Positions 5,233 through 52,322 of a stretch of DNA of 64,000 nt are shown piece by piece (within the stretch, counting starts at the first letter, position 1; each line of letters starts with the position of its first letter). A program made the position numbers and the translations under genes. Origin of the DNA: Candidatus Hydrogenedens sp. (GTDB lineage: Bacteria > Hydrogenedentota > Hydrogenedentia > Hydrogenedentales > JAEUWI01); contig WGMK01000007.1 of the NCBI GenBank assembly GCA_016125095.1, positions 265,605-329,604 of the forward strand. The letters run 5' to 3'. Below the pieces are notes generated by a model. That model was not told where the DNA came from and ran no database searches. It saw only the letters and a list, made by a program, of their open reading frames with translations.

Positions 5233-7659
5233 ATGAAAAATCTTGTTTTTTGTCTTGCCTTGATGGCCCTGACCAGCGCTTTTCCTGTTTCTGCGCTGAC
5301 CATCCAAACGAACAGCGCGTCCATTAAACAGTCCCCCAGCCACGGACACCTGGCCTGGAACGGCGAAATCGGCCAGTACATCTATGTACCGGCCGCAGGC
5401 CAGTACCGGATGACGGTGCGCGCTGCGGGCATGCTCGCGGGCGGCGTCGGACCGGACATGGCGTTCCGCGTGAATCAGGTGAGCCGCTTCACCGTACAGG
5501 TCAACCACACCGATTTCCGCTACTACAGCTACGATGTCGCACTCGAAGCGGGCGCGCATGAAATTGGCGTTGCGTTCACCAACGACGCCTACATCAACGG
5601 TGAAGACCGCAACTTGCTGCTCGACACCATTTCGGTATCGCCGATTAGCGGCGGCGGCGAGCCCTCGCTGAGCACCGAGCAGGCGTGGATCGATGGCGCC
5701 CAGGTGCGCGACGCCGCGGTGCTGTCCAAGACGAACGCCCTTATCGAGCAGAACCGCAAGGCCCCGATGCAGGTGCTGGTGGTGGACGAGGCGGGCAACG
5801 CCGTGAGCGGCGCGCAGGTGGAAGTCACCCAGGACGCCAGCGAGTTCCTGTTCGGCGCGAACTTGCACGGCTTCAACCAATACACCGGTTCGCAGAACAC
5901 CACGTACAAGCAGAAGTTCAGCGAACTCTTTAATTACGCGACGGTGCCCTTCTACTGGTCAATGATCGAGCCGGTGCAGGGCCAGCCGAACTACGCGCTA
6001 CTGGACGCGATGGTGGCTTGGGCGAAGTCGAACAACATCGACCTCAAGGGCCACGCGGTGCTGTACGGCGACACGGGCATGGTGCCCGCGTGGGCCGGCA
6101 CGCCGAGCGAATCGACGCAGCTGGCGCGCATCAATGAAGTGTTCAGCCGCTTCGGCGGCAGCATCAACAAATGGGACCTCGTGAACGAGCCGGTCAGCGC
6201 GCTGGGCTCGATGGTCTTCGCGCCGGCCTACCACTACGCCAAGTCCCTCCAGCCGAACAGCAACCTGCTGGTGAATGAATACGGCCAGTTCTACAGCGGT
6301 TTCGACGTGTTCTTCGCGAACGCCTACCAGACCCTGCGCGAGACGATGGAGCAGCAACTCGCCGCCGGTACCCCGATTGACACGGTGGGTATCCAGGCGC
6401 ATGCGCCGGTCGATACGGCTTGGCCGCTGGAGACCATCTGGAACCACCTCGACCTGTACGCTGCGCTCGGCACCGACATCCACATCACCGAGTTCATGCC
6501 CTGCTCGAACGGCGCTCCGGTGCTGGGAACGCCCTACCGCGGCACCTGGACGGAGGCCACGCAGGCCCAGTTCGCCGAAGACTTCTACCGCGTCTGCTTC
6601 GCCCATGAAGACGTGAAGGCCATCAGCTGGTGGGACTTCGCCGACACGGGCGCCTGGCTCTCGGGCGGCGGCATGCTGCGCAGCAACTTCACAACGAAGC
6701 CGGTCTATGACCGCCTGAAGAACCTGGTGAAGAACGAATGGCGCACCAATGCGGCGGGCGCGAGCGACGCGCAGGGCCGCTACCTCGTGAACGCCTTCCA
6801 CGGCGCCTACACGGTAAGCGTGACGCGCGATGGCCAGACCTACACGCAGCACCTGACGGTCAGCAAGGACGGCGACAACGTCGCGGTGGTGACGCTCCCC
6901 GGCGGTTCGACGCCAACCCCGGACACGACGGCCCCGGTGATTAGCCTCAATGGTGCTGCGAGCGTGACGATTAACCAGGGCACGAGCTACAGCGACGCGG
7001 GCGCGACGGCGACCGACAACATCGACGGCAACCTGACGGCGCAGATCTCGGTGAGCGGAACCGTGAACATGAGTGTCGCGGGTACCTATACCCTGACCTA
7101 TCGCGTGAGCGATGCCGCTGGCAACGCGGCCACCCCGGTGACCCGCACCGTGACGGTGAAGGCCGTGGACACGGTAAAGCCGGTTATCACCCTGACGGGC
7201 TCCGCGAACATGAGTGTTAACCAGGGCGGCAGCTTCAATGACCCCGGCGCAACGGCGACCGACAACGTCGATGGCAACCTGACCAGCCAGATCACGGTGA
7301 GCGGTTCGGTGAACACGGGCGTGGCCGGTACGTACACGCTGACTTACCGCGTGAGCGATGCCGCCGGCAATGCCGCCACCCCGGTGACGCGCACCGTAAC
7401 CGTGCTCGCGGGCGACACCGTGAAGCCGGTCATCACGCTCAAGGGCTCCTCGACGGTGAGCGTCCGGTGGCGCCGCAGCTTCAGCGACCCCGGCGCGACG
7501 GCGACCGACAACGTGGACGGCAATCTGACCAGCAAGATTCAGGTCTCCGGCAACGTGAACACGAGCTGGCCGGGCACCTACTACCTCTACTACAACGTGT
7601 CGGACGCGGCTGGCAATGCGGCAACGCAGGTTGTCCGCACGGTCAAGGTCACCTGGTAA
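5233..7659 (+). CDS. Secreted GH10-like glycoside hydrolase with N-terminal beta-sandwich module and 3 C-terminal Ig-like (DUF5011-type) repeats
   Basis: RBS gggagg 7 nt upstream and a signal peptide MKNLVFCLALMALTSAFPVSA. GH10 (clan GH-A) catalytic signatures are present: WDLVNEP (acid/base) and ITEFMP (nucleophile). Three tandem ~82-aa repeats carry ATDN[IV]DGNLT and VSDAAGNAATPVTRTV motifs. Confidence 0.7.
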   Translation: MKNLVFCLALMALTSAFPVSALTIQTNSASIKQSPSHGHLAWNGEIGQYIYVPAAGQYRMTVRAAGMLAGGVGPDMAFRVNQVSRFTVQVNHTDFRYYSYDVALEAGAHEIGVAFTNDAYINGEDRNLLLDTISVSPISGGGEPSLSTEQAWIDGAQVRDAAVLSKTNALIEQNRKAPMQVLVVDEAGNAVSGAQVEVTQDASEFLFGANLHGFNQYTGSQNTTYKQKFSELFNYATVPFYWSMIEPVQGQPNYALLDAMVAWAKSNNIDLKGHAVLYGDTGMVPAWAGTPSESTQLARINEVFSRFGGSINKWDLVNEPVSALGSMVFAPAYHYAKSLQPNSNLLVNEYGQFYSGFDVFFANAYQTLRETMEQQLAAGTPIDTVGIQAHAPVDTAWPLETIWNHLDLYAALGTDIHITEFMPCSNGAPVLGTPYRGTWTEATQAQFAEDFYRVCFAHEDVKAISWWDFADTGAWLSGGGMLRSNFTTKPVYDRLKNLVKNEWRTNAAGASDAQGRYLVNAFHGAYTVSVTRDGQTYTQHLTVSKDGDNVAVVTLPGGSTPTPDTTAPVISLNGAASVTINQGTSYSDAGATATDNIDGNLTAQISVSGTVNMSVAGTYTLTYRVSDAAGNAATPVTRTVTVKAVDTVKPVITLTGSANMSVNQGGSFNDPGATATDNVDGNLTSQITVSGSVNTGVAGTYTLTYRVSDAAGNAATPVTRTVTVLAGDTVKPVITLKGSSTVSVRWRRSFSDPGATATDNVDGNLTSKIQVSGNVNTSWPGTYYLYYNVSDAAGNAATQVVRTVKVTW
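6922..7659 (+). repeat. 3 tandem 246-bp coding repeats (Ig-like DUF5011-type domains); units 2 and 3 nearly identical at DNA level
   Basis: Repeat units start at about 6922, 7168 and 7414. Conserved DNA blocks (gcgacggcgaccgacaac, ccggtgac(c/g)cgcaccgt) recur with a 246-bp period. Confidence 0.8.
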
Positions 7660-7822: not shown

Positions 7823-10800
7823 ATGCGCTGCTGGATTCCCATAGTTTTAGGCATCATTCTGGTTCCTGCCGCCTGGGCCGGTCCGCTGGACGGCCTGACC
7901 CTGCAGGCGGAGCTTCCGGCTGTTCAAACCAATCAGGCGACCGACCTTTCGATAGAACCGGAGGGCGGTCTCGACCCGGGCTGGACCTATGCCTGGACGT
8001 CATCCAGCGGAGCGCTAGCGGCGGACGAATCCGAAGCTACCTTCACCGCGTCGTCCCTGAGTGGATACGTCCTCATCGAGGTCGAAGTATTTGACGGTGC
8101 GAACAGCCTCGGCATTCTAAGAACGCCCCTGCTGATTTATACCCAACTGGCCATCATCAAGGCCGACGACTACGTGAGCTACAACGGCAGCGTGCCTGCG
8201 GCCTGGCAGGCCTATTTCGACGTGATGAACCGCGAGTACCGGCTCAAGCATACCGTCGGCGTGATCACGGAGTGCCTGAACAACTACACCTTCGAGACCG
8301 GCACCAATTTCACCGACGGCATGCAGGCGCTGCACGTCTCGGGGCTGGGAGAAATCTGGCACCACGGGCTTGACCACTCTGGTACCATCGACGAGGCCAA
8401 GGGGGCCGAATTGAGCTTGGCCGCGCTACCATCGCCAGTCTGGAAGGCATCGACCATCACGGAATTCTTCGGACAGCCTTACGCCTTCCAGAAGGCGCAT
8501 CTCGAGAACGGCTTGACGCTGTCGCGCGATGTGCTCGGGTTTCCGATGGTGACCTTCGGCGCGCCTTTCGGCATGAGCGACAGCACGACGATTACCGTCG
8601 TTGATGAATCCGCCGATATCGCCAATTGGTACGACGGGCTCTCGGGCACGGCCAAACGACTGTTGCCTGTAGACGGCGTGCTGGTAGAAAACCCTACGGG
8701 GTATCCGCTGCTCGAGCAGTTCAACGCGATCTATGATCCGGAACAGCCGCTGATCATCATGCAGGTGCATCCCGGTTACGAAGAGCCGGCAGGCGTGTTT
8801 CCCTTTAGCACGCGCCTCCCGGCGTGGCGTACGATGCTCGACACCGTCTTGTCGAATCAGACGGTGTTCCTGACGGCAGCCGAATACGACGCGCTGTTCG
8901 ACCAGGGGGCTTTCCCGCTGTATCCCGGTCGAGATACGGACACCGATGGCATCGAGGACTGGAACGAGGGCAACGGCGACACCGACGGCGACGGCATGCC
9001 GGATTTTCTGGACTTCGACAGCGGTGGAGCCGGACCTCGCATTCAACAGTTGGGTGTCGAGCTCGTGGCTGCGGGGCAGTATGAAATCACCTTCGAACTC
9101 GCGGACGCCGATACGGTGCATGACATCGTGGTCGAGCTGGATCAGGGCGGCGGAGCCGGGTTCGAGGCGCTGATTGAAATTAGCGGCGACCTCACGGGCC
9201 TGACCAGCGGCAATGGCTACACGATTGACTGGGACACTGCGACCGAGTTGCCGGGGGTAGAGCTTGATTACACGTCGATTCGACTGACGCCAGTTGTTTC
9301 GGTACCCGCCAGCCCCGACCGCGTACCCAGCGATGAGGCCACGTTCACGCAAGGATGCACGGACTGTGTCAGCGGCGACACAATACCCTCGTTCCAGGTC
9401 CGCCTCTCCCCCTATGAGTTGGGAACCTATGAAGTAACCAACGGCGAATTCGCCGACGTCCTGAACTATGCGCACGGCGAGGGGTACCTCACGAACCCCA
9501 GCGGTGCGGCTTATGCCGGCGGCGATGTGTACTTTGCCGGACAGAGGCTCTATGCCCTTTCCGCAAGCGGTGCGCAAATCGCATTCAGCGCAGGGATATT
9601 CAGTCCCAAGACCCGCGATACCCTGCCCATGGACGGCCATCCGGTAACTCAGGTGACCTGGTATGGGGCGGCGGCCTATTGCAATTGGTTGAGCGAACAG
9701 GCGGGACTCGAGTCCAACTACGACCCCGACGATCTCTGGCGGGCGGCTTACCCGCCCGCGAATGGATTTCGTCTGCCTAGCGAAGCGGAGTGGGAGCACG
9801 CCGCCGGATGGGTGGACGTCGATGGCGCCTTCGGCTTTCCAACCAGCACCGACACGCTGTCGACCCAGCAGGCGAACTACAGTTCGTCCAATCCGCTGAG
9901 CCTGACCAACGCGCCCTTCACCACGCCGGGCGGTTACTACGACGGTAACAATGGCACGACCGACAGCCCGAGTCCCTTAGGTGCTTACGACATGGCAGGC
10001 AACGCGGCCGAATGGTGCGCCGACCGATACGACGCGTACTTCGAATATTCCGCGACCGATCCGATAGGTTCCTACACAGGACCGCGCCGCGTGGTGCGCG
10101 GCGGTGCCTGGGCCGACACCGATGCTGCATGCGAAACGACCGCGCGCGAGTCGGCGCTGGGCAGCACGGCCAGCAATCGTATCGGCTTCCGTATCGCCCG
10201 CTCTGTACGGAACGGAGACCGGACGACATCAGGAATATCGATCGACAACGTCCCGCCGCAGGTAACCGCCATGGCGCTGGAATCGCCGGTCAGCGAGAGC
10301 GACCTTACGATGCGCTTCACCGTGACGTTTTCCGAGCCGGTGGAAGGGCTCGTGCTGGGCGACTTTGACCTCACCGCCAACGGAATCGTGGTCATTCCTC
10401 CGGCCCTCACGTCGTTGGAGGGAAGCGGCGACGCCTATGTACTTGAAGCCACCACGGGGACCATGCAGGGCTCAATCGACCTCGAACTGATTCCCTCTGC
10501 CGCGGCGACCGATGAGGGGCTCAATCCGATCGACGCCTACACAGAAACAGCGATAGCGACGCTGAATACGCTGGCTCCCGCAGTGACTTCGCTCGAACTG
10601 GTCGGAAGTCCGCCCGACAACGCGGACACCCTGGTCTTTAGTGTCATGTTCAGCGGGCTGGTGGTAGCGGTCGTGCCCGACGACTTCACGCTGCAACTCG
10701 ATGGCGAATCGGGACCCGTGGGACCGGCCATAACCGATGTCAGCGGGGCAGGCCCCGTCTGGCTGGTCACCGTGGCAGTCAATGAGTTCGACGGGCAATT

Positions 10801-40282: not shown

Positions 40283-41890
40283 CTAGGGACGGTGGAGTTG
40301 CGTCCCCAGTTCTTCCAGGCGCCTGCGTGGTAATTCGACCGTGGCGCGGGCGCCGCGCTCGGGGCAGTTTTCAATGGAGATTCTGCCGCCGTGACTCTCA
40401 ACGATCTTCTTGCAGCAGGCCAGGCCGAGTCCCGTGCCGCGCGAGCCCTTGGTCGTGAAAAACGCATCGAAAATATGGGGAAGATGCTCGTCGCCGATAC
40501 CGGCCCCGGAATCGGTGACTTCGACGACCACCGACTCGGGATGACCCACCGCCAGAATCTCGACCGTTCCGCCGCCGGTTTCGCATGCATCGAGCGCATT
40601 GGCGACCAGATTCAAGACCACCCGGTGCAATTCACGGCCATCGCCATCGAGCCGCGTGCTGCCCTCGTATCGGAAGCGCACCTCGACTGCATGCTTGGCG
40701 GCCTGTTGCGCTACGGTCTCTACGACATCGCTGCAGATCGCCGCGATATCGCAGGCCTCGCGGTGCCCTGAGCCCCCGCGGGAGTAGGTGAGCATGTTCA
40801 ACACCAAGGTCTCGATGCGATCAATCGAACGCTGAAGGATGGGCCACCCGACCTGCAGCTGTTCCCACCGCTGGGATTGAACGCCCTGGCTGATTAAATC
40901 CGAACTGGCCCGGATTCCCGTGAGCATGTTCTTGATGCAATGCCCCAGTCCGGCCGTTGCCTCCCCGATGGCCGCGAGTCGCTCGGATTGCACGATCTGG
41001 TGGTGCAGGGTGGCATTCTCCACCGCAACACCCGCGATCCGGCCGATGGCGCTGAGCAGTTCGAGCGACTTTCCCTGGAACGGCCGCACCTGCCGGCCGG
41101 AATCGACGTAGATCACCCCGACGACGGACTCGCGTCCCAGCAGGGGGGCGCACATGGCGGAGTGGATTTCGTGGTCGGCAATGCTCGCCGAGGTGTCGAA
41201 GCGGCTGTCCTGTACGGCGTCAGCCACGAGAATCGCCTCGCGAGACCGCACCACCTTATCCACCAGCGTCTGGCTGATGGGGGGGCCGCTTTCGTCCGGC
41301 TGGCGGCTTAGCGAGGCCCGCAACTGCGCGGGCTCGCCCACGCTTTCGACGGTCAAGATAAAGCCGCGCTGCACGGGCAGGCTTTCGAAGACCAGTCCGA
41401 GCAGTTCCCGCAGCAATTCGTCCAAGTCGAAGATCTCGCCCAGCAACATCGATGCATGGAACAACGTCGCCAGGGGAGTGCCGACGGTATCTCGCAGGAG
41501 CGACTGTTGGAACATCTCGCTCTTGGCCATGCTCACGACAGACTGGGCGTAGGGTTCCGCACTGGCGGCGATCTCGAATTCCTGGTTACCGACGCGAAGC
41601 ACGTCTCCCGGATGCAGCTCGGCGAATGGTGTCGTCTTGCTGTTCACCATGATGCCGTTGCGGGAGCCGAGATCCTTAACCGACAAACGCCCATTTTCGA
41701 AATAGATCTGCGCGTGTTTCCGGCTCACGGACTGGTCCTGGGCGAGCGGAATACCGCACTCGTCCGCACGCCCGATGATCAGTCCGTTCTCCGGCACGGC
41801 GGTACGGCGCGGTTCCGCTCCGCTCCTCTTCCAGAGCAACTCGTAAGTGCTATCGCCAGCCATCCCTCTGCGCTCCAACGATTCAGCCAA
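40283..41890 (-). CDS. FHA-GAF-histidine kinase (sensor kinase with N-terminal forkhead-associated domain)
   Basis: FHA domain (GRADECGIPLAQDQSVSRKHAQIYFENGRLSVKDLGSRNGIMVN). GAF region. HisKA H-box (LGHCIKNMLTGI). HATPase_c (VVLNLVANALDA...DSGAGIGDE...GTGLGL). Confidence 0.75.
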   Translation of the reverse strand: MAESLERRGMAGDSTYELLWKRSGAEPRRTAVPENGLIIGRADECGIPLAQDQSVSRKHAQIYFENGRLSVKDLGSRNGIMVNSKTTPFAELHPGDVLRVGNQEFEIAASAEPYAQSVVSMAKSEMFQQSLLRDTVGTPLATLFHASMLLGEIFDLDELLRELLGLVFESLPVQRGFILTVESVGEPAQLRASLSRQPDESGPPISQTLVDKVVRSREAILVADAVQDSRFDTSASIADHEIHSAMCAPLLGRESVVGVIYVDSGRQVRPFQGKSLELLSAIGRIAGVAVENATLHHQIVQSERLAAIGEATAGLGHCIKNMLTGIRASSDLISQGVQSQRWEQLQVGWPILQRSIDRIETLVLNMLTYSRGGSGHREACDIAAICSDVVETVAQQAAKHAVEVRFRYEGSTRLDGDGRELHRVVLNLVANALDACETGGGTVEILAVGHPESVVVEVTDSGAGIGDEHLPHIFDAFFTTKGSRGTGLGLACCKKIVESHGGRISIENCPERGARATVELPRRRLEELGTQLHRP

Positions 41891-42014
41891 GTTGCGAATT
41901 GCTGATCGTTATAGGGGGATCGATGGTCGATTTACAAGCAATCCCGAATTTCTTACTTTGGGGTTGTACCATTGGAGGTTCTTTTCGACGGCCGGGCGGG
42001 CGGAACGTAACTTC

Positions 42015-42043
42015 TTGAACGCCAGAAATACTGCTGCTATATT
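42015..42043 (+). promoter_or_regulatory. Putative sigma70-type promoter for mrfA-like gene
   Basis: TTGAAC (42015-42020), 17-nt spacer, TATATT (42038-42043). RBS aaggag at 42051-42056, then GTG at 42063. Confidence 0.4.
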
Positions 42044-42062
42044 CAGTGGTAAGGAGCGCCGC

Positions 42063-44357
42063 GTGAACGTAGCCCAAACCATCGACCGCCTCAAGGGCGA
42101 TGCGGATTTCTGCCGCAGCCTGACCGCGTGGAAAACCGTGCCGCCACGTCCCGCGCGCTTCGGCGGATTTCCGGAGGGCCTCGACCCGCGGCTCGTGGCG
42201 GGCTATCAGAAGCGCGGCATCTACGACCTGTACACGCACCAGAGCCAGGCGGTGCAGGAAGCGCTGGCCGGCAACAACGTCTGCGTGGTTACCCCGACGG
42301 CCTCGGGCAAAACGCTCTGCTACAACATCCCGGTGCTGCAGCGGATCCTCGAGAATCCCAAGGCGCGGGCGCTCTACATCTTTCCCACCAAGGCGCTTTC
42401 GCAGGATCAGGTCTTCGAGCTCAAGGGCACCATTGACGATCTGGAGGTGAAGATTGGCACCTTCACCTTCGATGGCGATACCCCGGCCTCGGCGCGCAAG
42501 GCGGTGCGGAGCGCCGGGCACGTGGTGGTGACGAATCCGGACATGCTGCACAGCGGCATCCTGCCGCACCACACCATCTGGATCCGCCTGTTCGAGAACC
42601 TCGAGTACGTGGTCATCGACGAGGTGCACCACTACCGCGGGGTGTTCGGCAGCCACCTGGCGAACGTGCTCCGGCGCCTCAAGCGCATCTGCGCGTTCTA
42701 CGGTTCGAATCCGCAGTTCATCTGCTGCAGCGCCACGATTGCGAATCCGAAGGAATTGGCGGAGCGGATCATCGAAGCACCGGTATCGCTGGTGGACGAC
42801 AACGGCGCCCCGGCGGGCGAGAAGCATTTCCTGTTCTACAACCCGCCCGTGGTAAATGCGGAACTCGGCATCCGGAAATCCTCGGTGCATGAGGCAAGCC
42901 GTATTGCGCAGCAGCTGCTGATGAAGGAAATCCAGTCCATCGTCTTTGCGCGCAGCCGCCTGCGGGTCGAGGTGCTGACGACCTACCTGAAAGAGGCCGT
43001 GCGCAAGATGGGCAAGCCCGACGCGCTGGTGCAGGGCTATCGCGGCGGCTATCTGCCCACCGAGCGGCGCGCCATCGAGCAGGGCCTGCGCGAGGGCAAG
43101 ATCATGACGGTGGTCAGCACCAATGCGCTGGAGCTCGGCATCGACATCGGCGCGCTGGACGTGTGCATCATGACCGGATACGCAGGCAGCGTGGCCAGCA
43201 CCTGGCAGCAGGCCGGGCGCGCGGGACGCCGCAACAACGTGAGCCTCGTGGTGCTGGTCGCCACGAGCGCGCCGCTGGATCAGTACATCATCCAGCACCC
43301 GGAATACTTCTTCGAGCAGTCGCCGGAGAGCGGCACCATCGATCCGGACAACCTGATCATCCTGACGAGCCACCTGAAGTGCGCAAGCTTCGAACTGCCG
43401 TTCATCGAGGGCGAGGGCTTCGGCATCGACGCCCATTCAACCGAGCAGGTGCTGGATTACCTGGCCGAAAACCGCGTGCTGAGGAAGGTGCGCGACAAGT
43501 GGCACTGGAGTGCCGACACCTATCCCGCCGAGGACGTGAGCCTGCGGACCGCCGCGCCGGGGAATGTGGTGATTCTCGACACCAGCGACGACGGGCGCGT
43601 GATCGGCGAGGTCGATTATTTCGCGGCACATGTCGAGGTCTATGAAAACGCCATCTACATGCACCAGAGCCGGCAATACACCATCGACAAGCTGGACCTG
43701 AAAGATCGTAAGGCCTACGCGCGTCCGGTGGAGACGGACTACTACACCGACGCCGAACTGAAGGTGGACCTGCGGATTATCGATGCGCTGGAGGACATGG
43801 AGATCGGGCAGGCGCGGAAATGCTGCGGGGAACTCAGCGTCACCTGGCTCGCGACCATCTACAAGAAGATCAAGTTCGGTACGCACGAGAACGTAGGCTG
43901 GGGCGAAATCCATCTACCTGAGCAGAACATGCACACGATGGGCTATTGGATTGAATACCCCGACGAGGCGGAATCCCTGTTCGAGATGGAGCGCGAGGAA
44001 CTGGGCGAAGCGCTCAACGGCCTGGCCAACACGCTCCGGCAGGTGGCCCCCGTGCGCGTGATGTGCGACCTCACCGATATCCGCGCGACGGCCATGCTAC
44101 GCTCGCCCGTGTCGGAGCGTCCCTCGGTCTTCCTATACGAAACCTATCCCGGCGGCGTGGGGCTGAGCGAAAAGTTGTACGCGCACCATCAGGTGCTGCT
44201 CGAGTCCGCCATCAGCCTGATTACCGATTGCGGCTGCCGCGAGGGCTGCCCGAGCTGCGTGGGCACACCGCTAGAGACCGGACCGATGGGCAAGCAGGGG
44301 GCCGTGGCGCTGGCCCGCTTCGCGCTGGGACAGCCGCTGGCCGCGGCGGCGGAGTAG
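42063..44357 (+). CDS. mrfA: MrfA/YprA-like DEAD/DEAH-box helicase with C-terminal DUF1998 (4-Cys MZB) domain
   Basis: Walker A VVTPTASGKTLCY, DEVH box (VVIDEVHHYRG), motif VI QQAGRAGRR, and a C-terminal DCGCREGCPSCVG cysteine cluster typical of DUF1998. About 764 aa from GTG 42063; the ORF-track start at 41847 would overlap the divergent gene. Confidence 0.75.
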   Translation: MNVAQTIDRLKGDADFCRSLTAWKTVPPRPARFGGFPEGLDPRLVAGYQKRGIYDLYTHQSQAVQEALAGNNVCVVTPTASGKTLCYNIPVLQRILENPKARALYIFPTKALSQDQVFELKGTIDDLEVKIGTFTFDGDTPASARKAVRSAGHVVVTNPDMLHSGILPHHTIWIRLFENLEYVVIDEVHHYRGVFGSHLANVLRRLKRICAFYGSNPQFICCSATIANPKELAERIIEAPVSLVDDNGAPAGEKHFLFYNPPVVNAELGIRKSSVHEASRIAQQLLMKEIQSIVFARSRLRVEVLTTYLKEAVRKMGKPDALVQGYRGGYLPTERRAIEQGLREGKIMTVVSTNALELGIDIGALDVCIMTGYAGSVASTWQQAGRAGRRNNVSLVVLVATSAPLDQYIIQHPEYFFEQSPESGTIDPDNLIILTSHLKCASFELPFIEGEGFGIDAHSTEQVLDYLAENRVLRKVRDKWHWSADTYPAEDVSLRTAAPGNVVILDTSDDGRVIGEVDYFAAHVEVYENAIYMHQSRQYTIDKLDLKDRKAYARPVETDYYTDAELKVDLRIIDALEDMEIGQARKCCGELSVTWLATIYKKIKFGTHENVGWGEIHLPEQNMHTMGYWIEYPDEAESLFEMEREELGEALNGLANTLRQVAPVRVMCDLTDIRATAMLRSPVSERPSVFLYETYPGGVGLSEKLYAHHQVLLESAISLITDCGCREGCPSCVGTPLETGPMGKQGAVALARFALGQPLAAAAE

Positions 44358-44364
44358 TCCCCCG

Positions 44365-45663
44365 ATGGACGACGTGCGCGCCAAGCTGGACGCCCTGCTG
44401 AAAAGCCGGAACCTGATGACCGGCCGGCAATACGAGGAACAGCACCGCGAGGAATCCGAGCAGCGGCAATCGGGCGCTTTTGATCTGCCGCAGGTGGTGC
44501 CGGGCGAAGACGTGGGGGAGGACCCCGCGTTCTATCTGGTCCGCACCGAGTATCCGCTCGACCACCTGCACGGCCAGCTGCCGCTGGGATCGGCGCTGAC
44601 CGCCTCGGGCGAGCACATCGCTTTTTCCGCGCAGGACGAAGAGCTGATTGACTTCGACCCGGCGCGCACGGCCTTCGTCGATACCGAGACCATCGGCCTC
44701 GCGGGCGGCGCCGGCACGGTCGCCTTTCTGGTGGGCGTGGGTTATTTCACGGAGCATGCCTTCCGCCTCGACCAGTGTTTCATGCGCGACTACGACGAGG
44801 AGGAGCCGATGCTGGCGTTTCTCGCCGAGCGCTTTGAGGGCATGGAAACCGTCGTGGGCTACAACAGCAAAAGCTTCGACCTGCCGCTGCTGCGCACGCG
44901 CTTCATCCAGAACCGCATACCCTTCCGCGCCGAGGCCTGCGCGCACTACGATCTGGTGCATGCCGCGCGCCGGTTCTACAAGCGGCGGCTGGCCGATTGC
45001 AGCCTGGGCAACATCGAGCGCGAAGTGCTCGGCATCCGCCGCGAGGGCGACGTGCCCAGCTATCTGATACCGCAACTCTGGTTCGACTACCTCCGCACGC
45101 GCGACGCCCGCCCGCTCAAGGGCGTGTTCTACCACCACCAGACCGACATCCTCTCGCTGGTCACGCTTACGGCGTGGTTGTCGGAATGCCTGCAGCGCGG
45201 CGGCACCGAGGGCTTCGAGCATGCTGAGGACAAGTTGTCCCTCGTGCGCATCCACTTCCGGCAGAAGAACTACGAAGCGGTCGCCGACCTGGGTAAGCGC
45301 TTTCTCGAGGCGGACGGCGCCGACCAGGACACCGAGCCCGAGCGCTCGCTGCGGCTGGAATGCCTTGAGATGCTCGGCTTCGCCTACAAACGGCTCTCTC
45401 GGTTCGAGGACATGCGGGATTCGTGGGCCTGGCTGCTGGCCGAATCGCCCGCGCATCTCTCGGCCCGGCTCGAACTCTCCAAGCACTACGAACACCGCGA
45501 GCGCGACTACGGCCGCGCCCTCGCCCTATGCGACGAAGCCCTGGAGAATCCCAACCGTTTCGGCGCCGCGGTCGCCTCTGGAGAACTCCGCGCCCGCCGC
45601 GATCGCATCGCCAATAAAATGAACCGCGGCATGAAGGGGCACGCGGCCGACCTGCTGGAATAG
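44365..45663 (+). CDS. mrfB: MrfB/YprB-like RNase-H-fold (DnaQ-like) exonuclease with C-terminal TPR region
   Basis: Starts 8 nt after mrfA-like. N-terminal DTETIGL (DEDD motif I-like), GYNSKSFDLPLL, HHQTDILS (motif III-like), and C-terminal TPR-like helical repeats. 432 aa. Confidence 0.65.
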   Translation: MDDVRAKLDALLKSRNLMTGRQYEEQHREESEQRQSGAFDLPQVVPGEDVGEDPAFYLVRTEYPLDHLHGQLPLGSALTASGEHIAFSAQDEELIDFDPARTAFVDTETIGLAGGAGTVAFLVGVGYFTEHAFRLDQCFMRDYDEEEPMLAFLAERFEGMETVVGYNSKSFDLPLLRTRFIQNRIPFRAEACAHYDLVHAARRFYKRRLADCSLGNIEREVLGIRREGDVPSYLIPQLWFDYLRTRDARPLKGVFYHHQTDILSLVTLTAWLSECLQRGGTEGFEHAEDKLSLVRIHFRQKNYEAVADLGKRFLEADGADQDTEPERSLRLECLEMLGFAYKRLSRFEDMRDSWAWLLAESPAHLSARLELSKHYEHRERDYGRALALCDEALENPNRFGAAVASGELRARRDRIANKMNRGMKGHAADLLE

Positions 45664-45715
45664 CCGGGGAGGGGGGAAGACGCACCGCAGTGGCGCGGAG
45701 GGCACGGAGAAGGCC
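45601..45715. repeat. Direct repeat copy 1 (3' end of mrfB-like gene + downstream ~50 nt)
   Basis: gatcgcatcgccaataaaatgaaccgcggcatgaaggggcacgcggccgacctgctggaatagccgggga...ggcacggagaagg is about 90% identical to 46885-47000. Confidence 0.85.
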
Positions 45716-45747
45716 TCAGGCAAGTGATTGATCTTCAACGAGACCTA

Positions 45748-45768
45748 GTGCATACTTCGACTATGCAC
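45748..45768. promoter_or_regulatory. Inverted repeat (putative antitoxin operator) upstream of the vapB-like gene
   Basis: GTGCATA-cttcgac-TATGCAC: perfect 7-bp arms with a 7-nt spacer, about 20 nt upstream of the antitoxin start. Confidence 0.35.
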
Positions 45769-45785
45769 CAATTCGGAGTATCAGA

Positions 45786-46031
45786 ATGAAAGCGACTATT
45801 CTCGACATGCGCCGAAATCCGCAAAAAATCTTAGACGCAATCGCACGAAACGAGATCGTGACGCTTTCTTATCGCGGCAAAGAAATCGCTCGAATCGCGC
45901 CCATCGAGTCGGAGAAGCGCTGTAGCGCGTCTGAGCATCCCGCGTTCGGCATGTGGGCCGACCGCGAAGATATGGCTAATCCAACCGAGTACGTGAAGCA
46001 GTTACGAAGAGAACGCTATCGTGATCTTTGA
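45786..46031 (+). CDS. Phd/YefM-like type II antitoxin (VapB-position)
   Basis: 81 aa (MKATILDMRRNPQKILDAIARNEIVTLSYRGKEIARIAPIE), Phd/YefM fold signature. Overlaps the PIN gene by 11 nt. Low local GC. Confidence 0.7.
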   Translation: MKATILDMRRNPQKILDAIARNEIVTLSYRGKEIARIAPIESEKRCSASEHPAFGMWADREDMANPTEYVKQLRRERYRDL

Positions 46032-46401
46032 CACGGATGTCGTCATCTTCGCTTTGCGGGGCAATAGACGCGCCGCCGAATTGATCGACCGCGATGAACT
46101 GCCCGTCATATCGGTCGTAAGCTACTTGGAACTGGCACGTGGAGCACGTGATAAAGCCGAGCTTCGAGACGTTGGAAGATTCCTGAAGCATGTCGGGCTT
46201 CACACCTTGCCCCTCTCAGAGAACATAGGATTTCAAGCCCGTATCTACATTGAGGAATACGGATTGAAGAGCGGGCTGGGAGTCGCCGATTCCCTCATCG
46301 CTGCGACAGCGGCAGACGCTCAATTGACGCTTTGCTCGGGAAATGCCAAACACTTTCGCACCATCTCCGATCTCGATTTACGCGTGTTCCGAGGCGCGTG
46401 A
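46021..46401 (+). CDS. vapC: PIN-domain ribonuclease toxin (VapC family)
   Basis: 126 aa with the N-terminal MIFDTDVVI acidic motif and conserved D/E positions (ADSLIAATA, LCSGNAKHF). Confidence 0.8.
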   Translation: MIFDTDVVIFALRGNRRAAELIDRDELPVISVVSYLELARGARDKAELRDVGRFLKHVGLHTLPLSENIGFQARIYIEEYGLKSGLGVADSLIAATAADAQLTLCSGNAKHFRTISDLDLRVFRGA

Positions 46402-46446
46402 CATCGATGTCTCGACCAACTCCGTAGCGTCGGCATACGCATGGGG

Positions 46447-46783
46447 TCACCCGGGGTGACGCGGCTCGAAGCCGAAGTCCCGCGCGCGTTCTCGCAACGC
46501 CGCCGTCGAGTCCACATTTTTCACGGGAAAGAATCTCCTCAGCGCCCATTCGATATACGGGCTTACCGATTCGTCCGTACCATCGTCGTCGATAATCCAA
46601 TACTGTAAGAAGGGATCCAAGGATTCGATCTGCTCCGGTGTTGCCTTGGATAGCGCGCGTTCGTCGAGATGGAGATGGTCCCAATATCCCAATCCGTCCA
46701 CGTAATCGACGATAAGTTCCAGATAACCAGGCTCCCAGGTTGCCGGATTAGCCGCACCGATGCTGGAAATCACCCCGACCATC
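46447..46783 (-). CDS. Hypothetical protein (start uncertain; longer ORF-track version borrows N-terminus from antisense of the direct repeat)
   Basis: The ORF 46447-46989 extends its N-terminus into DR copy 2, where it is antisense to the duplicated mrfB tail, as is the spurious 45526-45738 ORF. The first internal M (MVGVISSIGAANPATWEPGYLELIVDYVDGLGYWDHLHLDE...) gives about 112 aa. No recognisable domain. Confidence 0.3.
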
Positions 46784-46884
46784 GGATGCCAAACGTCTGA
46801 AAACCGGTTGTACGGGAATGCGTCAATCTGAACGACTTCCTGCGGCGCGAAGCGTTGCTCGTATTGATAGTCCGCTTCCGGCGC

Positions 46885-47000
46885 GATTGCATCGCCAACA
46901 AAATGAACTGCGGCATGAAGGGGCACGCGGCCGACCTGCTGGAATAGCGGGGGAGTGGGGAAAACGCACCACAGAGGCACGGAGGGCACGGAGAGGAGGA
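46885..47000. repeat. Direct repeat copy 2 (duplicate of mrfB-like 3' end), closing the vapBC islet
   Basis: gattgcatcgccaacaaaatgaactgcggcatgaaggggcacgcggccgacctgctggaatagcgggggag...ggcacggagaggagg. It retains the TAG stop and a decayed copy of the last ~20 codons. Confidence 0.85.
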
Positions 47001-47143
47001 ATGCGAGGAAGGGCCCACAAGAGCCTGCAAGGGATTTACGGGGCTAGCGCCAACGGCGCGGACGAAGCCATGGTCAGGGCGTAAGCCCGTCGGCAACGCT
47101 GCAAATTCACGGTTCAGGAACTTCAGAGTCAAAGGCCCGTCCA

Positions 47144-47285
47144 ATACCAGCCTGGGCCAACGGCCCAGGTATAAGGCATTCCCAAAGAATGAGGGCTGAT
47201 GGCCTGATCTATGAAATGGCGCGCGCCTTCAGCGCTTCGACCTTCTGTTGCGCCATGAACCTGGGCCGATGGCCCAGGCTGGTAT
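47144..47285. mobile_element. MITE/REP-like structured element: two near-identical hairpins with complementary flanks (26-nt terminal inverted repeats)
   Basis: ATACCAGCCTGGGCCAACGGCCCAGG (47144-47169) versus CCTGGGCCGATGGCCCAGGCTGGTAT (47260-47285). Each contains a self-complementary cctgggcc-N4-ggcccagg hairpin. The outer flanks ATACCAG / CTGGTAT are complementary, giving a ~15-bp long-range stem. No ORF inside. Confidence 0.5.
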
Positions 47286-47410
47286 AGATGTGACCGTTGG
47301 CCCCCAGGAAAGCATTTCGAGGCCGAGATGCTGCCAACGTGCAAGGGGGTAATCCTTCAAACCTCGCGTCAAATCGCGGGACTCGCTTGGGTGCCGCACA
47401 TCCCCGGTTG

Positions 47411-48325
47411 TCAATTTATGATTTCCACGAGTCTCCGCCAATACTCCCACAGCCACGTTGTGGATACCAGATCAGGCGCGTCGGTTTGCGCTTCCGTTAT
47501 CGTGCATACCCATGCTGCGGTCTCAGGAGCGGCAGAGAAGGAGGCACGTGTCACGCTCGGAATTCCCAGCTTGCTCACCTCCAGCCCTTCGTACGCGTAT
47601 TCGGTATTGTAGGCCATCATGCGGTTCTCGACATGTTGGTCCCAATCGAAGCGCCAAGAGGCGAACGAACTACTCAGTATCTTTTCCGCCACTTCATCAT
47701 AAAATACATACTCTGAAATCATGAGGAAATTCGCATCGGGTATTCGGGGAACGGGCGGACTGGCCGCATCGGCGTCCGGATACTTCAGGTCGAGGAGTGG
47801 ATTCGCGACGGCGGCCCGCACACAGGGCGACGACGAATCGCAATCCACAAAGCGCGTGTAATAGCGCATGGCCCGGGGCGAAATACGGTAGAATCCGGAG
47901 CACGGAAAAAGTACCGCCTCGATTATTGGAAGCGGCCACGCGATACGGCGGAAATCCCGTCCCTCCGGCGTGTCGGAGAATTTAGCATCATCCGTCCACC
48001 GCTGCTTGCCGCAGACGATAGAATGACCGTTCCGGTGAATGGGCTCCTGCCAGACCCCGTCCCGTCCCCACCGCAGACGCCACGCGTCGTCCCGCCACGA
48101 AAACTCAACGTCGAACGGCCCGCCTTTCGGGGCGCAATCCTCCGGCAATAGGGCCACAGGAAAATCTTTCGACAGATCAATCCGGGCCTCGATGCGCCCC
48201 ACGGCGGCCGATTGCTCGACCCGATAGCGGGCTTCCATCAGTTGCACGGGGTCCGCAAAGACGCTGTACGTCAAGACCATTGCGGCGGCGGCGATACAAG
48301 TAACTTTCGGTATTGTCCGGCTCAT
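47411..48325 (-). CDS. Hypothetical secreted protein
   Basis: Likely start MSRTIPKVTCIAAAAMVLTYSVFA (signal peptide). Lower GC than the flanking regions. No recognised domain. Confidence 0.45.
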   Translation of the reverse strand: MSRTIPKVTCIAAAAMVLTYSVFADPVQLMEARYRVEQSAAVGRIEARIDLSKDFPVALLPEDCAPKGGPFDVEFSWRDDAWRLRWGRDGVWQEPIHRNGHSIVCGKQRWTDDAKFSDTPEGRDFRRIAWPLPIIEAVLFPCSGFYRISPRAMRYYTRFVDCDSSSPCVRAAVANPLLDLKYPDADAASPPVPRIPDANFLMISEYVFYDEVAEKILSSSFASWRFDWDQHVENRMMAYNTEYAYEGLEVSKLGIPSVTRASFSAAPETAAWVCTITEAQTDAPDLVSTTWLWEYWRRLVEIIN

Positions 48326-48357
48326 ACCGAATCTACCTTCCATCAGCGGCAAATATT

Positions 48358-49551: not shown

Positions 49552-49703
49552 GAGTTGGCCCTCCCTAAGGTAACTTCGAGCGAGTATGCGGCGAGTTCCC
49601 TTCCCGATGCCAGCCAGATTTTTTCTTCGTTCCCATCTTCTCCTTCCTTCCCCCTTCCTCTCTGTGCCCTCTGTGCCTCTGTGGTGAACGCATCCGCGCA
49701 AAA

Positions 49704-52322
49704 TTGGCAGCCAGCCGCCGGGTGTACTACGATACCGCTCCCTTCAGGAGTACTCCCCGCGTGCCCAGAAAAGACATTGGCGAAGACATTACCCGGCGCT
49801 TTACGCCCGAGGCTGCCCGCGCGCTGCAGGAAGCCATCGACGATGCGGGCGGCCACGAGGTGTTTTTCGCCGGTTCGCTCAACGCCTCGGGCATTGTCGA
49901 ATCCGTCCGCGTCTGCGCCCGGGGCCACGCCAGCGCCGTGCCCGCGCTGTTCGAATCGCTACAAGTGCGAGACGTCGTCATCCACAATCACCCGAGCGGA
50001 CGGCTGGATCCCAGCGACGCCGACCTGCAGCTCGCGTCGATGTACAGCACCCACGGCCATGGGGTCTACATCATCGACAATCCGGCCGAGCGCGTGTATG
50101 TGGTGGTCGAACCCTTCCTCCAGAGCGACCAGCAGCCGCTGCACCCCGAAAAGGTGGCGGGAGAGATCGAGCCGGGAGGACGCTTGTCCGCGGGACTAAA
50201 GGGCTACGAATACCGCGAACAGCAGCGCGATATGGCCGTCGCCGTCATCGACGCGCTGAATCACGACCGCATCACGGTGGTCGAAGCGCCCACGGGCGTG
50301 GGGAAGACCGTGGCTTACCTGCTGCCGGCCATCCACTGGGCCGCGCAGAACAAAGAGCGCGTGGTGGTCTCCACCCGCACCATCAACCTGCAAGAGCAGA
50401 TCATCGAAAAGGATCTGCCCGCCCTCCAGCGCGCCCTCGGCACCGAACTGAGCGCCTGCCTGGTGAAGGGGCGCGGCAACTACCTATGCTGGCGCAAGCT
50501 AAACCGGGCCCTGGGCGAGGCCACCTTATTCGAGGGCGAGGAGCGGCGCGAGCAGCTGAACGAACTCGCCGCCTGGGCCGAGCGAACGCCCGACGGCAGC
50601 CGCTCCGACCTGCCCTTTGTGCCCGCGCGCGACCTGTGGAGCGAGGTCTGTTCCGAGGCGGACAGCTGCGGCTTTTCTCGATGCCCGGATAAGAAGCGCT
50701 GCTTCGTGACCAAGGCGCGGCGCGATATCGCCCGGGCCGATATCGTCGTGGTCAACCACCACCTGCTGTTTTCCGATATCGCCATCAAGCGCGAAACTGG
50801 CGACTTCTCGGCGCTGGCCCTGCTGCCCGCCTACAAGCGCCTAATTCTCGACGAGGCCCACAGCGTGGAAGACAGCGCCACGGAATACTTCGGGGTCTCG
50901 GCCACGCGGCTCGGGGCGCTCGCCACGCTGGGCCGGCTCTACCGCACCGAGCGGCAGCGGCAGCGCGGGCTGCTCCCGCTGTTCAAGGCCAAGCTGATGA
51001 AGGACTGCCACGACCTGCCCATCACGGCCTTCGAGCAGATGCAGGCGGCCATGGACACGCGCATCGAGCCCGCCGTGGCCGACGCGCGCCGCCAGTTAGA
51101 CGACTACTTCGACGCCATCCGCTCGCTTGGGGCCGAACGCTGCGAGGACATCGGTCGCGACATCAAGTGGCGACTGACCGAAGCCGCGCTCGCCGAGCAG
51201 ACCGTGCGCATTTTCCATCAGGAGGTCGTCCATCCGCTGGTCGAGTGCCTCCGCACCCTGTGTACGCTGCTGTTGTCCCTGGCCGAGCGGGCCGGCCGCG
51301 AAGTGAAAAGCGCCCGGGATCCCGAATCGCCGATTGTGGGCGAACTGGCCGAACTGCAGGCCTATGCGCTGCGCCTCGAACGCCTGGCCGAGACCCTGGC
51401 GGAAATCACCTCGCCCCAGTTGCGTGAGAATACCGTCCGCTGGGTCGAATTCGACGCGACCGATTCCCGGCTGGTGCGCGTGGCACGGTGTCCGCTCGAG
51501 GTGGGGGAGCCGCTCGCCGAGGGCGTCTACGAACACCTGCGTTCGGTCGTGCTCACCTCGGCGACGCTCACGGTCAATCAGCGCTTCGACTACCTGTTCT
51601 CGCGGCTGGGCATGGACCGTCTGCCCTCGGAGCGGGTTGTAAGCCGCCGTCTGACCTCGCCGTTCGACTACGCGAACCAGGCGATGCTGGCGATACCCAA
51701 CGACCTGCCCGAGCCGACCTCGCCCGATTTCGGCGAGGCCTCGCATGAGGCGCTGCTTGAATTGCTCAACGCCACCCACGGCGGGGCATTCGTGCTGTTC
51801 ACTTCCTATGCCGCGCTCGACCGCGCCCATCGCGCCCTCATCGGCCCGCTGAACGACGCCGGGCTGACCGTGCACAAGCAGGGCGCGCTGCCGCGGAATG
51901 TGCTGTTGGAGCGCTTCCGGGCCGACCACTGCGGCGTGCTCTTCGCCACAGACAGCTTCTGGGAAGGGGTCGACGTTGCCGGTCAGGCGCTGCGGTGTGT
52001 AGTATTGGTGCGGCTGCCCTTCCGCGTGCCGTCCGAGCCCGTGCTCGAGGCGCGGTCCGAGGCCATCGAGGCCCGCGGAGGCAATGCCTTCATGGATTAC
52101 GCCGTGCCCCAGGCCGCCATCAAGTTCCGGCAGGGCTTCGGCAGGCTCATCCGCCGCAAGTCCGACATCGGCGCCGTCGTGGTGTTGGATCGCCGGATTG
52201 TGACCAAATACTATGGCCGGGTATTTCTAAAATCTCTGCCTGAACTACAGCCGGTGCAAGCCAGCATGCGCGAAATCGCCGAACAGGTGCGCGCGTTTCT
52301 GGCACAACCCAGAGGGGAGTAA
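49704..52322 (+). CDS. dinG: Fusion protein: N-terminal RadC-like JAB/MPN (JAMM) domain + DinG/Rad3-family Fe-S ATP-dependent DNA helicase
   Basis: N-terminal (~150 aa) EVFFAGSLNASGIV...VVIHNHPSGRLDPSDADLQL...HGHGVYIIDNPAERVYVV carries the RadC signature HNHPSG(x3)PSxxD (about 49983-50000). Helicase: Walker A VVEAPTGVGKT, Fe-S cysteines CLVKGRGNYLC...CSEADSCGFSRC...C, DEAH box LILDEAHSVED, and a C-terminal Helicase_C_2 (FVLFTSY...QGFGRLIRR). Confidence 0.75.
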   Translation: MAASRRVYYDTAPFRSTPRVPRKDIGEDITRRFTPEAARALQEAIDDAGGHEVFFAGSLNASGIVESVRVCARGHASAVPALFESLQVRDVVIHNHPSGRLDPSDADLQLASMYSTHGHGVYIIDNPAERVYVVVEPFLQSDQQPLHPEKVAGEIEPGGRLSAGLKGYEYREQQRDMAVAVIDALNHDRITVVEAPTGVGKTVAYLLPAIHWAAQNKERVVVSTRTINLQEQIIEKDLPALQRALGTELSACLVKGRGNYLCWRKLNRALGEATLFEGEERREQLNELAAWAERTPDGSRSDLPFVPARDLWSEVCSEADSCGFSRCPDKKRCFVTKARRDIARADIVVVNHHLLFSDIAIKRETGDFSALALLPAYKRLILDEAHSVEDSATEYFGVSATRLGALATLGRLYRTERQRQRGLLPLFKAKLMKDCHDLPITAFEQMQAAMDTRIEPAVADARRQLDDYFDAIRSLGAERCEDIGRDIKWRLTEAALAEQTVRIFHQEVVHPLVECLRTLCTLLLSLAERAGREVKSARDPESPIVGELAELQAYALRLERLAETLAEITSPQLRENTVRWVEFDATDSRLVRVARCPLEVGEPLAEGVYEHLRSVVLTSATLTVNQRFDYLFSRLGMDRLPSERVVSRRLTSPFDYANQAMLAIPNDLPEPTSPDFGEASHEALLELLNATHGGAFVLFTSYAALDRAHRALIGPLNDAGLTVHKQGALPRNVLLERFRADHCGVLFATDSFWEGVDVAGQALRCVVLVRLPFRVPSEPVLEARSEAIEARGGNAFMDYAVPQAAIKFRQGFGRLIRRKSDIGAVVVLDRRIVTKYYGRVFLKSLPELQPVQASMREIAEQVRAFLAQPRGE

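Follow-up and report, generated by a model that had tools for sequence, protein, structure and literature searches.

A toxin-antitoxin islet inserted at the duplicated 3' end of an mrfB-like gene in Candidatus Hydrogenedens

We analysed a stretch of 64,000 nucleotides (nt), hereafter the window, from contig WGMK01000007.1 (positions 265,605 to 329,604) of Candidatus Hydrogenedens sp. (assembly GCA_016125095.1). In this window, a foreign segment of 1.16 kb adjoins the 3' end of an mrfB-like gene and is bracketed by a 126-nt duplication of its target. This islet carries a predicted VapBC-type toxin-antitoxin (TA) operon and a convergent open reading frame (ORF), designated ORF180. As to how it arose, we infer, with slightly better than an even chance, a Campbell-type single-crossover integration at the mrfB 3' end, which would have regenerated the gene and left what is now an integrase-less remnant resembling a cis-mobilizable element (CIME).

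A foreign segment between two copies of the mrfB 3' end

The features that define the insertion are as follows.

41847-44357, plus strand: mrfA-like superfamily 2 (SF2) helicase of the core genome (Pfam DEAD, E = 1.9e-35; Helicase_C; WHD_HRQ1; MZB, the MrfA Zn-binding domain, E = 3.8e-19)
44365-45663, plus strand: mrfB-like DEDDh exonuclease of 432 aa with a TPR tail (Pfam RNase_H_2, E = 3.3e-35; NCBI GC168_04250), the 3' end of which is duplicated
45587-45712, plus strand: repeat copy A (attL-like), made up of the last 77 nt of mrfB, the TAG stop, a 19-nt spacer and a degenerate short element
45626-45664 (= 46910-46948), plus strand: core of 39 nt, identical by base-by-base comparison; candidate crossover segment
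45713-46870: inserted low-GC segment of 1,158 nt (GC 0.544), absent from the related loci L040 and L041
46871-46996, plus strand: repeat copy B (attR-like), made up of an mrfB pseudo-tail with two Arg->Cys changes, TAG, the spacer and a near-consensus short element, then ancestral downstream DNA

Counted base by base, the two direct repeats are 126 nt long and differ at 13 positions (89.7% identity), in line with an earlier reading made from the letters alone (the sequence-only reading), which had described direct repeats of ~115 bp and ~90% identity duplicating the mrfB end. Automated repeat finding returned 45587-45710 versus 46871-46994 (124 nt, 90% identity, spacing 1284), and pairwise alignment agreed. 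The mismatches lie at copy A positions 45592, 45593, 45597, 45604, 45615, 45625, 45665, 45672, 45679, 45687, 45691, 45695 and 45711, which gives a 39-nt 5' arm with six differences, a 39-nt core with none and a 48-nt 3' arm with seven, each arm being ~85% identical between the copies. The element that closes each copy is intergenic and spans ~30 nt. A 49-nt probe from the mrfB-tail part was matched twice in the 64 kb, by copies A and B, for a chance expectation of 0. Copy B indeed keeps the mrfB tail frame and its stop, as had been claimed, with one synonymous change besides the two Arg->Cys changes relative to copy A.

The closest relative found, locus L040 (JGI 3300050184) with its Logan twin L041, shares 80.6% of nucleotides with the window over 5.4 kb (mrfAB and upstream DNA), with amino-acid identities of 92.5% for MrfA and 84-85% for MrfB. 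Its order is mrfA, mrfB, a TAA stop, 6 nt, one short element, a spacer of ~440 nt and the orthologous GH172/DUF2961 gene on the minus strand. This locus is devoid of the antitoxin, the PIN toxin, ORF180 and ORF313 (a gene downstream of the islet, see below), and the C-terminal tail of its insert-free MrfB is conserved. Since it has the tail and the element and no TA genes, the mrfB tail and the element are ancestral, and the segment with the TA operon and ORF180 is an insertion. An empty site with a single repeat copy, which the idea of an integration had implied, thus exists in a related genome, in this one relative at ~80% nucleotide identity. Among 37 more distant mrfAB loci (48-75% MrfB identity; Hydrogenedentota or mislabelled 'Nitrospirales' metagenome-assembled genomes, MAGs), none had the window's downstream genes. 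Where the contigs of related loci extend upstream of mrfB, synteny of the mrfA-mrfB pair is kept in most of them. Degenerate back-translation of the MrfB tail gave 0 matches in JGI metagenomes, and exact-protein look-ups of MrfB returned no record. On the taxonomic side, loci L003-L006, L019, L025 and L029-L031 come from MAGs named 'uncultured Nitrospirales bacterium', with MrfB 52-59% identical to that of the window, the same range as in MAGs labelled Hydrogenedentota, which suggests that the 'Nitrospirales' labels on these mrfAB-bearing MAGs are mislabelled taxonomy.

The bracketed segment is foreign in its composition. Its GC content, compared with 0.626 for the window, is the lowest of all 1158-nt stretches in the window, and GC at third codon positions (GC3) is 0.57 in the antitoxin gene (z -4.1), 0.60 in the PIN toxin gene (z -3.6) and 0.65 in ORF180 (z -2.7), versus 0.80 +/- 0.06 in 27 window genes. 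This profile bears out the visibly lower GC that had been noted between the repeats.

The arrangement was also seen outside the deposited assembly. Logan unitigs of run SRR10063241, an independent assembly at k=31, recovered both inner junctions of the insert; on either side of the core, they end exactly 30 nt away from the first mismatch, as a graph with k=31 requires. An artefact of assembly would consist of an uninterrupted mrfB site and a separate 1,284-nt circle or other locus, threaded together through the shared 39-nt core; the k=31 graph is indeed ambiguous in this respect, as the unitigs stop at the core on all sides and the ends of the insert unitig overlap by 21 nt. The same unitig pattern is equally produced by an integrated repeat, however, the graph being identical for the integrated form and for an empty site plus a circle. 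Moreover, both the reads and the larger k-mers of MAG assembly greatly exceed the 39 nt of this repeat, the deposited 469-kb contig spans the core, and a 1.3-kb circle without a replication gene is unlikely to persist alone, and we therefore grant an artefact a very slight probability. Allelic collapse of two strains was rejected, as the junction between ORF180 and copy B is a k=31 path in the independent assembly.

Terminal inverted repeats were not found at the insert ends. A transposon or insertion sequence was rejected for want of such repeats and of a transposase domain, and in view of a duplication of 126 nt, compared with the short 2-15 bp type. Repeats of ~124 nt and ~90% identity around TA cargo do recall the Vibrio superintegron, in which repeats of ~120 nt and ~90% identity, the Vibrio cholerae repeats (VCRs), bracket TA cassettes, and the islet could on this ground be taken for an integron-type gene cassette of the chromosomal-integron kind with attC-like repeats. 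By contrast with VCR cassettes, the islet repeats have no attC hairpin, and single-stranded DNA folds of both strands of both copies were no better than those of shuffled sequence (z +0.70 to -0.39). RYYYAAC and GTTRRRY core sites are not visible in the repeat sequence, no integron integrase (IntI) lies nearby, most of the repeat is coding sequence from the end of a housekeeping gene, and a single 'cassette' would hold two oppositely oriented transcription units. The absence of hairpin, core sites and IntI led us to reject attC sites, and an integron origin retains next to no probability.

The genes of the islet

The inserted segment and its right border contain the following features.

45728-45756, plus strand: putative TA promoter read from the sequence (-35 TTGATC, 17-nt spacer, -10 CATACT)
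45748-45768: palindrome GTGCATA-N7-TATGCAC, unique in the window and overlapping the -10; probable antitoxin operator
45786-46031, plus strand: 81-aa antitoxin, weakly Phd/YefM-like, with a GGAG ribosome-binding site at 45775-45778
46021-46401, plus strand: 126-aa PIN-domain (VapC-type) toxin (PF01850, E = 2.6e-10, above the gathering score)
46447-46989, minus strand: ORF180 (NCBI GC168_04265, hypothetical protein, annotated start GTG at 46926), the first 36 codons of which are the antisense of copy B

From its sequence, the 45786-46401 region is predicted to be an intact VapBC-type TA operon. The PIN toxin, already proposed in the sequence-only reading, is borne out by the PF01850 match and by the retention of its acidic residues: D4, D6, E37 and D90 are invariant in an alignment of 12 sequences, and N108 is nearly so. 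It has 602 homologues, ~60% identical among the matches listed, in Hydrogenedentota, Planctomycetota, Verrucomicrobiota and other phyla, and weak PDB matches to VapC. The antitoxin stays under the cut-offs of its candidate families (PF02604, E = 2.6e-3, 17.9 bits for a cut-off of 29.8; TIGR01552, E = 5.9e-3, 15.9 bits for a cut-off of 20.8) and has no sequence match in the PDB. It is 63% identical to the 81-aa partner of the PIN homologue at locus L042, in another Hydrogenedens MAG. The antitoxin and toxin genes overlap by 11 nt, and the same overlap, together with the layout of 81 aa plus 125/126 aa, is found at L042 and L164.

Expression of the operon may be controlled by its own product. 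The TA promoter scores under the threshold of a generic promoter scan; the layout TTGACT-N17-CATACT aligns in the homologous L042 operon. The palindrome at the cassette promoter, which had been put forward as a likely operator, is present, and the motif AGTGCATACT-N5-T(A/G)TG(C/T)AC recurs in L042/L043 and L164, where its distance from the ATG is unchanged and the surrounding sequence differs. Conservation of the palindrome in two independent homologous TA operons while the flanks differ thus supports the operator (phylogenetic footprinting), and the antitoxin probably represses its own promoter through 45748-45768. The TA operon would thus have arrived complete with this regulatory region, the start of which lies only ~15 nt beyond the end of copy A.

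ORF180 is convergent with the TA operon and has no Pfam or NCBIfam match. A word-indexed search returned its own NCBI record only. When 1.84 billion representatives were searched exhaustively without a profile, two remote homologues came up and no others, namely P0002 (E = 1e-10) and P0003 (E = 5e-4). The family thus has three known members, with a conserved motif GY(W/L)DH(L/C)H(L/V), and is a candidate immunity family. The conserved domain starts at about residue 47, ~10 codons past the repeat boundary; in the homologues it is preceded by roughly 60-90 residues of unrelated N-terminal sequence. The only in-frame starts that keep the conserved N-terminal strand motifs are 46989, 46980 and 46926, all within copy B, the next start being Met70; therefore, if the protein is made, its first residues are the antisense of the mrfB tail. 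The 'small hypothetical ORF' of the sequence-only reading is accordingly a real, though rare, gene family. That reading had also noted look-alike ORFs antisense to each repeat copy, and both are present (45526-45738 and the N-terminus of 46447-46989), but the latter N-terminus cannot be dismissed as simply spurious, given where the domain-keeping starts lie.

The function of ORF180 may be approached through P0002 (locus L039), its only informative homologue; the contig of P0003 is too short to show the gene context. Immediately ahead of P0002 lies an ORF whose end consists of an Rhs core motif (RYYGLDSNRWLSRDPLG...DTDG) and a C-terminal tip of ~140 aa, and another RHS-repeat ORF follows P0002 directly (ORF coordinates 1-546, 672-1331 and 1429-1941 for the Rhs tip, P0002 and the RHS-repeat neighbour). 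A toxin C-terminal tip followed by an immunity gene is the standard layout of Rhs and other polymorphic toxin-immunity systems. Because its homologue P0002 follows an Rhs C-terminal toxin ORF, ORF180 can be read as immunity-like, and this one homologue, at 30% identity, suggests an orphan gene cut off from an upstream toxin. The DNA upstream of ORF180 is indeed repeat copy B, with no toxin gene. The layout of P0002 thus likens ORF180 to the Rhs immunity genes, from which it differs in having no preceding toxin gene and an N-terminal stretch of ~36 residues that is antisense mrfB tail. An AlphaFold2 model of ORF180 was weak (predicted local distance difference test, pLDDT, of 62), with only generic small beta-barrel matches such as PWWP, and was given no weight.

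The dispersed short element and the origin of the duplication

The last ~30 nt of each repeat copy (CACC[G/A]CAG[T/A]GGC[G/A]CGGAGGGCACGGAGA) belong to a widely dispersed family, of which the window contains three copies.

45683-45710, plus strand: short element copy A, with 5 mismatches to the family consensus
46967-46994, plus strand: short element copy B, near-consensus
49659-49686, minus strand: short element copy C, a third copy, which shows that the family is present in this genome

The element (~30 nt, TTCACCACAGAGGCACRGAGGGCACRGAG) has the form (a)TTCACCACAGAGGCAC[A/G]GAGGGCAC[A/G]GAG(aaaa), and the exact 27-mer CACCACAGAGGCACRGAGGGCACRGAG occurs in at least 120 JGI metagenome contigs (loci L044-L163) of GC 0.40-0.72, with flanks that are not conserved. 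In 34 of 100 cases, a co-oriented ORF of 100 codons or more ends at most 25 nt upstream of the element, versus 4 of 82 cases for the reverse orientation as a control; an inverted partner is often present 40-70 nt away. Longer units that contain it flank genes on both sides in some other genomes, e.g., L046. Rfam gave no match in the window between 45 and 50 kb, the short element included, and its sequence had no match in the searchable literature. We have no explanation for why a sequence this short, lying between genes, is exactly conserved in genomes that differ so much.

These data bear on whether the flanking similarity goes back to a pair of high-copy intergenic repeats, or to recombination between such repeats, rather than to a duplication of the mrfB end. 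The dispersal of the 3' ~30 nt, with its third copy in the window and its 27-mer in so many contigs, speaks for such an accident, and to that extent the repeat does belong to a dispersed family, a finding that the sequence-only reading had held would undermine its own interpretation. By contrast, the remaining ~96 of the 126 nt (the 77 nt of mrfB, the stop and the 19-nt spacer), duplicated contiguously with the element, have nothing in common with copy C, the L040 flanks or the metagenome consensus and occur twice in the window; the flanking is therefore no accident of a dispersed repeat. As the mrfB tail is moreover ancestral, being present in the insert-free orthologue, this explanation is largely refuted, and we consider it very improbable.

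Using L040 and copy C as outgroups, we polarised the differences between the repeats. The 5' arm of copy A has the base of the L040 orthologue at 2/2 informative sites, and the 3' arm of copy B has the base of both L040 and copy C at 3/3, the 3' arm of copy A being derived at the same 3/3. In line with this, the L040 element matches copy B at 25/26 positions and copy A at 22/26, and the purine-rich stretch that follows copy B resembles those after copy C and the L040 element, whereas copy A breaks off at 45712. This polarity and the break-off of copy A fit hybrid att-like sites and thereby support Campbell-type integration. That reading is further favoured because mrfB is regenerated, the repeats are long and imperfect, with an identical core between two diverged arms, no recombinase remains among the ORFs scanned, and the right end appears to sever ORF180 from its expected partner.

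The integration may be envisaged as follows. A circular DNA with a diverged (~85-90% identical) copy of the 126-nt region would have recombined once with the chromosomal copy, by means of RecA using the 39-nt identical block or of a site-specific recombinase that acted in trans or was later lost. With the crossover inside the still-identical block, copy A would combine the chromosomal 5' arm with the incoming 3' arm, leaving mrfB intact, and copy B would combine the incoming 5' arm, a dead mrfB pseudo-tail, with the chromosomal 3' arm and the ancestral downstream DNA. What came in was probably a larger DNA or a fragment of a genome, its right end now stopping ~10 codons short of the conserved domain of ORF180, ahead of which a toxin gene would be expected by analogy with P0002. 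The addictive TA pair probably helps to retain the remnant.

A different route to the same structure is the capture of foreign filler DNA at a double-strand break whose nicks were staggered by ~126 nt, or between two sister-chromatid ends. Fill-in would then duplicate the 126 nt exactly and the copies would drift to 90%, copy B being a dead mrfB pseudo-tail and the short element of copy A redundant. Such a capture explains equally well the lack of a recombinase gene, of terminal inverted repeats and of a hairpin in the repeat, and the insert indeed resembles a random genome fragment, with a TA operon and a gene severed near its 5' end. The Arg->Cys changes in the coding arm of copy B are typical of a decaying tail, and chance may account for the 39-nt identical run (P = 0.084, see below). 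Drift, however, predicts a mixture of changes in the two copies, and all three polarisable differences of the non-coding 3' arm lie in copy A; likewise, the 39-nt 5' arm of copy B carries six changes and the 39-nt core next to it none, even though neither stretch would be under constraint in that copy. We also count against it that we know of no target duplications above 100 nt as a regular product of bacterial end-joining. Break capture is thus the main rival and fits the polarity data and the contrast between 5' arm and core of copy B less well than Campbell integration; we regard it as unlikely, if well within reason.

Several observations weigh against Campbell-type integration as well. 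In simulation, an identical run of at least 39 nt, given 13 differences in 126 nt, had P = 0.084, which is not significant. The polarity test comprises five informative sites and one outgroup species, the Arg->Cys changes in the 5' arm of copy B, where the orthologue has Arg, may equally be decay of a dead tail after insertion, and selection on mrfB accounts for the 5'-arm pattern under any model. The islet contains no integrase or recombinase, nor do the ORFs scanned from 31.6 to 56 kb include one, and donor searches did not reveal a related autonomous element with the same att-like sequence, IMG/VR giving no match. No donor can be named, because the nearest non-self relative of the PIN toxin among the matches listed is only 63% identical. 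The homologous TA loci L042 and L164 are without flanking repeats; the repeats are therefore not a property of this TA family, and an origin of the repeats as a trait of that family was rejected. Finally, the species has been met in one sample only, exact look-ups of the PIN toxin and ORF313 having returned only Logan contigs of run SRR10063241.

The sequence-only reading had described an att-type duplication or recombination scar left by a small element. The insertion and its scar are supported by the empty site and the foreign composition, but a self-contained small element is at odds with the lack of an integrase and of terminal inverted repeats and with the apparently truncated context of ORF180, which leave a decayed remnant or captured fragment as the more likely origin.

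One further proposal concerns present mobility. The 1,284-nt unit of repeat and insert could still be mobile as a TA cassette without an integrase, excised and inserted anew by recombination across the 39-nt core, with the ~30-nt element serving as a portable landing or recombination site for such cassettes; we give this only a slim chance. As a hint at this, the unrelated metagenome contig L064 (GC 0.52) has repeats at 256-484 and 1890-2054 around a BrnT/BrnA plus UPF0175-like segment, and repeats at 2055-2225 and 4162-4315 around an MNT/HepT plus DUF2283 segment. Each pair is direct and ~90% identical, with repeats of roughly 150-230 nt; the first pair, which includes the dispersed 27-mer, meets the second at 2054|2055. 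The TA islet of the window may have a parallel here, though an anecdotal one, as other repeat pairs of the same screen flank ordinary genes.

Surroundings, known systems and meaning

Downstream of the islet, between mrfB and the GH172 gene and outside the repeats, lies one further gene.

47411-48352, minus strand: ORF313 (GC3 0.66, z -2.5)

ORF313 has no Pfam or NCBIfam match. Its N-terminus is signal-peptide-like by eye (MSRTIPKVTCIAAAAMVLTYSVFA), and a secreted protein or lipoprotein is predicted. Absent from L040, it is a putative second lineage-specific insertion between mrfB and the GH172 gene, and this interval appears to be a variable spot. It also contains, at 47125-47305, a nested palindromic element with 34-nt arms (47144-47177 and 47252-47285, 88% complementary), each of which contains the palindrome CCTGGGCC-N3-GGCCCAGG; its RNA fold reaches -96 kcal/mol (z = -6.0), with no Rfam match. 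The equivalent intergenic space of L040 has a different large inverted repeat (~8990-9180). Divergent from the GH172 gene, with short element copy C in between, a gene at 49704-52322 on the plus strand encodes a DinG-type helicase (Helicase_C_2, E = 4e-45; DEAD) with an N-terminal RadC-like JAB domain (PF04002, 23.0 bits for a cut-off of 22.1), a fusion which may be unusual. Elsewhere in the window, a large ORF at 5233-7659 includes three tandem 246-nt (82-codon) repeats at 6921-7658, with 64-76% identity, presumably a repeated protein domain.

Elements that have kept attL and attR and lost their integration genes are established as CIMEs (PMC5704250), and a similar situation is presented by islands in ssrA, the tmRNA gene (PMC3146451). 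The islet shares with CIMEs foreign DNA placed between two direct copies of the 3' end of a chromosomal gene that itself remains intact, as well as the loss of integration and transfer genes and the retention of an accessory or stabilising module, here the TA pair. It differs from them in its very small size (1.16 kb), in a right end that appears to cut into gene context and to offer no clean element border, in repeats that are only ~90% identical, and in that no autonomous element or integrase recognising an mrfB site is known. To our knowledge, mrfB has not been described as an integration site.

With VapBC systems, the islet has in common a PIN toxin with invariant acidic residues, an upstream overlapping 81-aa gene and a palindrome over the -10; it differs in an antitoxin that is only marginally Phd/YefM-like, has no PDB match and is known here from its sequence. 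As for the target, MrfAB is a helicase/exonuclease pair of mitomycin-C repair in Bacillus subtilis (PMC11194089, PMC7797055, bioRxiv 10.1101/426304). The window pair resembles it in the DEAD, Helicase_C and MZB domains of MrfA and in the DEDDh RNase_H_2 exonuclease with TPR of MrfB. This assignment is a prediction from domains and, unlike the B. subtilis pair, the window pair is considered here only as the target and context of the insertion.

The islet is by itself a fairly ordinary scar of horizontal insertion, and knowledge of genomic islets is unchanged by it alone. The short element, found across phyla and preferentially just 3' of stop codons, is the more unusual by-product. The islet nevertheless offers a small, clean case, in the poorly studied phylum Hydrogenedentota, of a TA module and an orphan immunity-like gene fixed beside a housekeeping DNA-repair operon, with an insertion scar that is still legible and an empty site at hand for comparison. 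It also offers items that can be tested, namely circle and empty-site junctions across the 39-nt core, the conserved operator of a widespread VapBC subfamily, and a candidate immunity family of three members.

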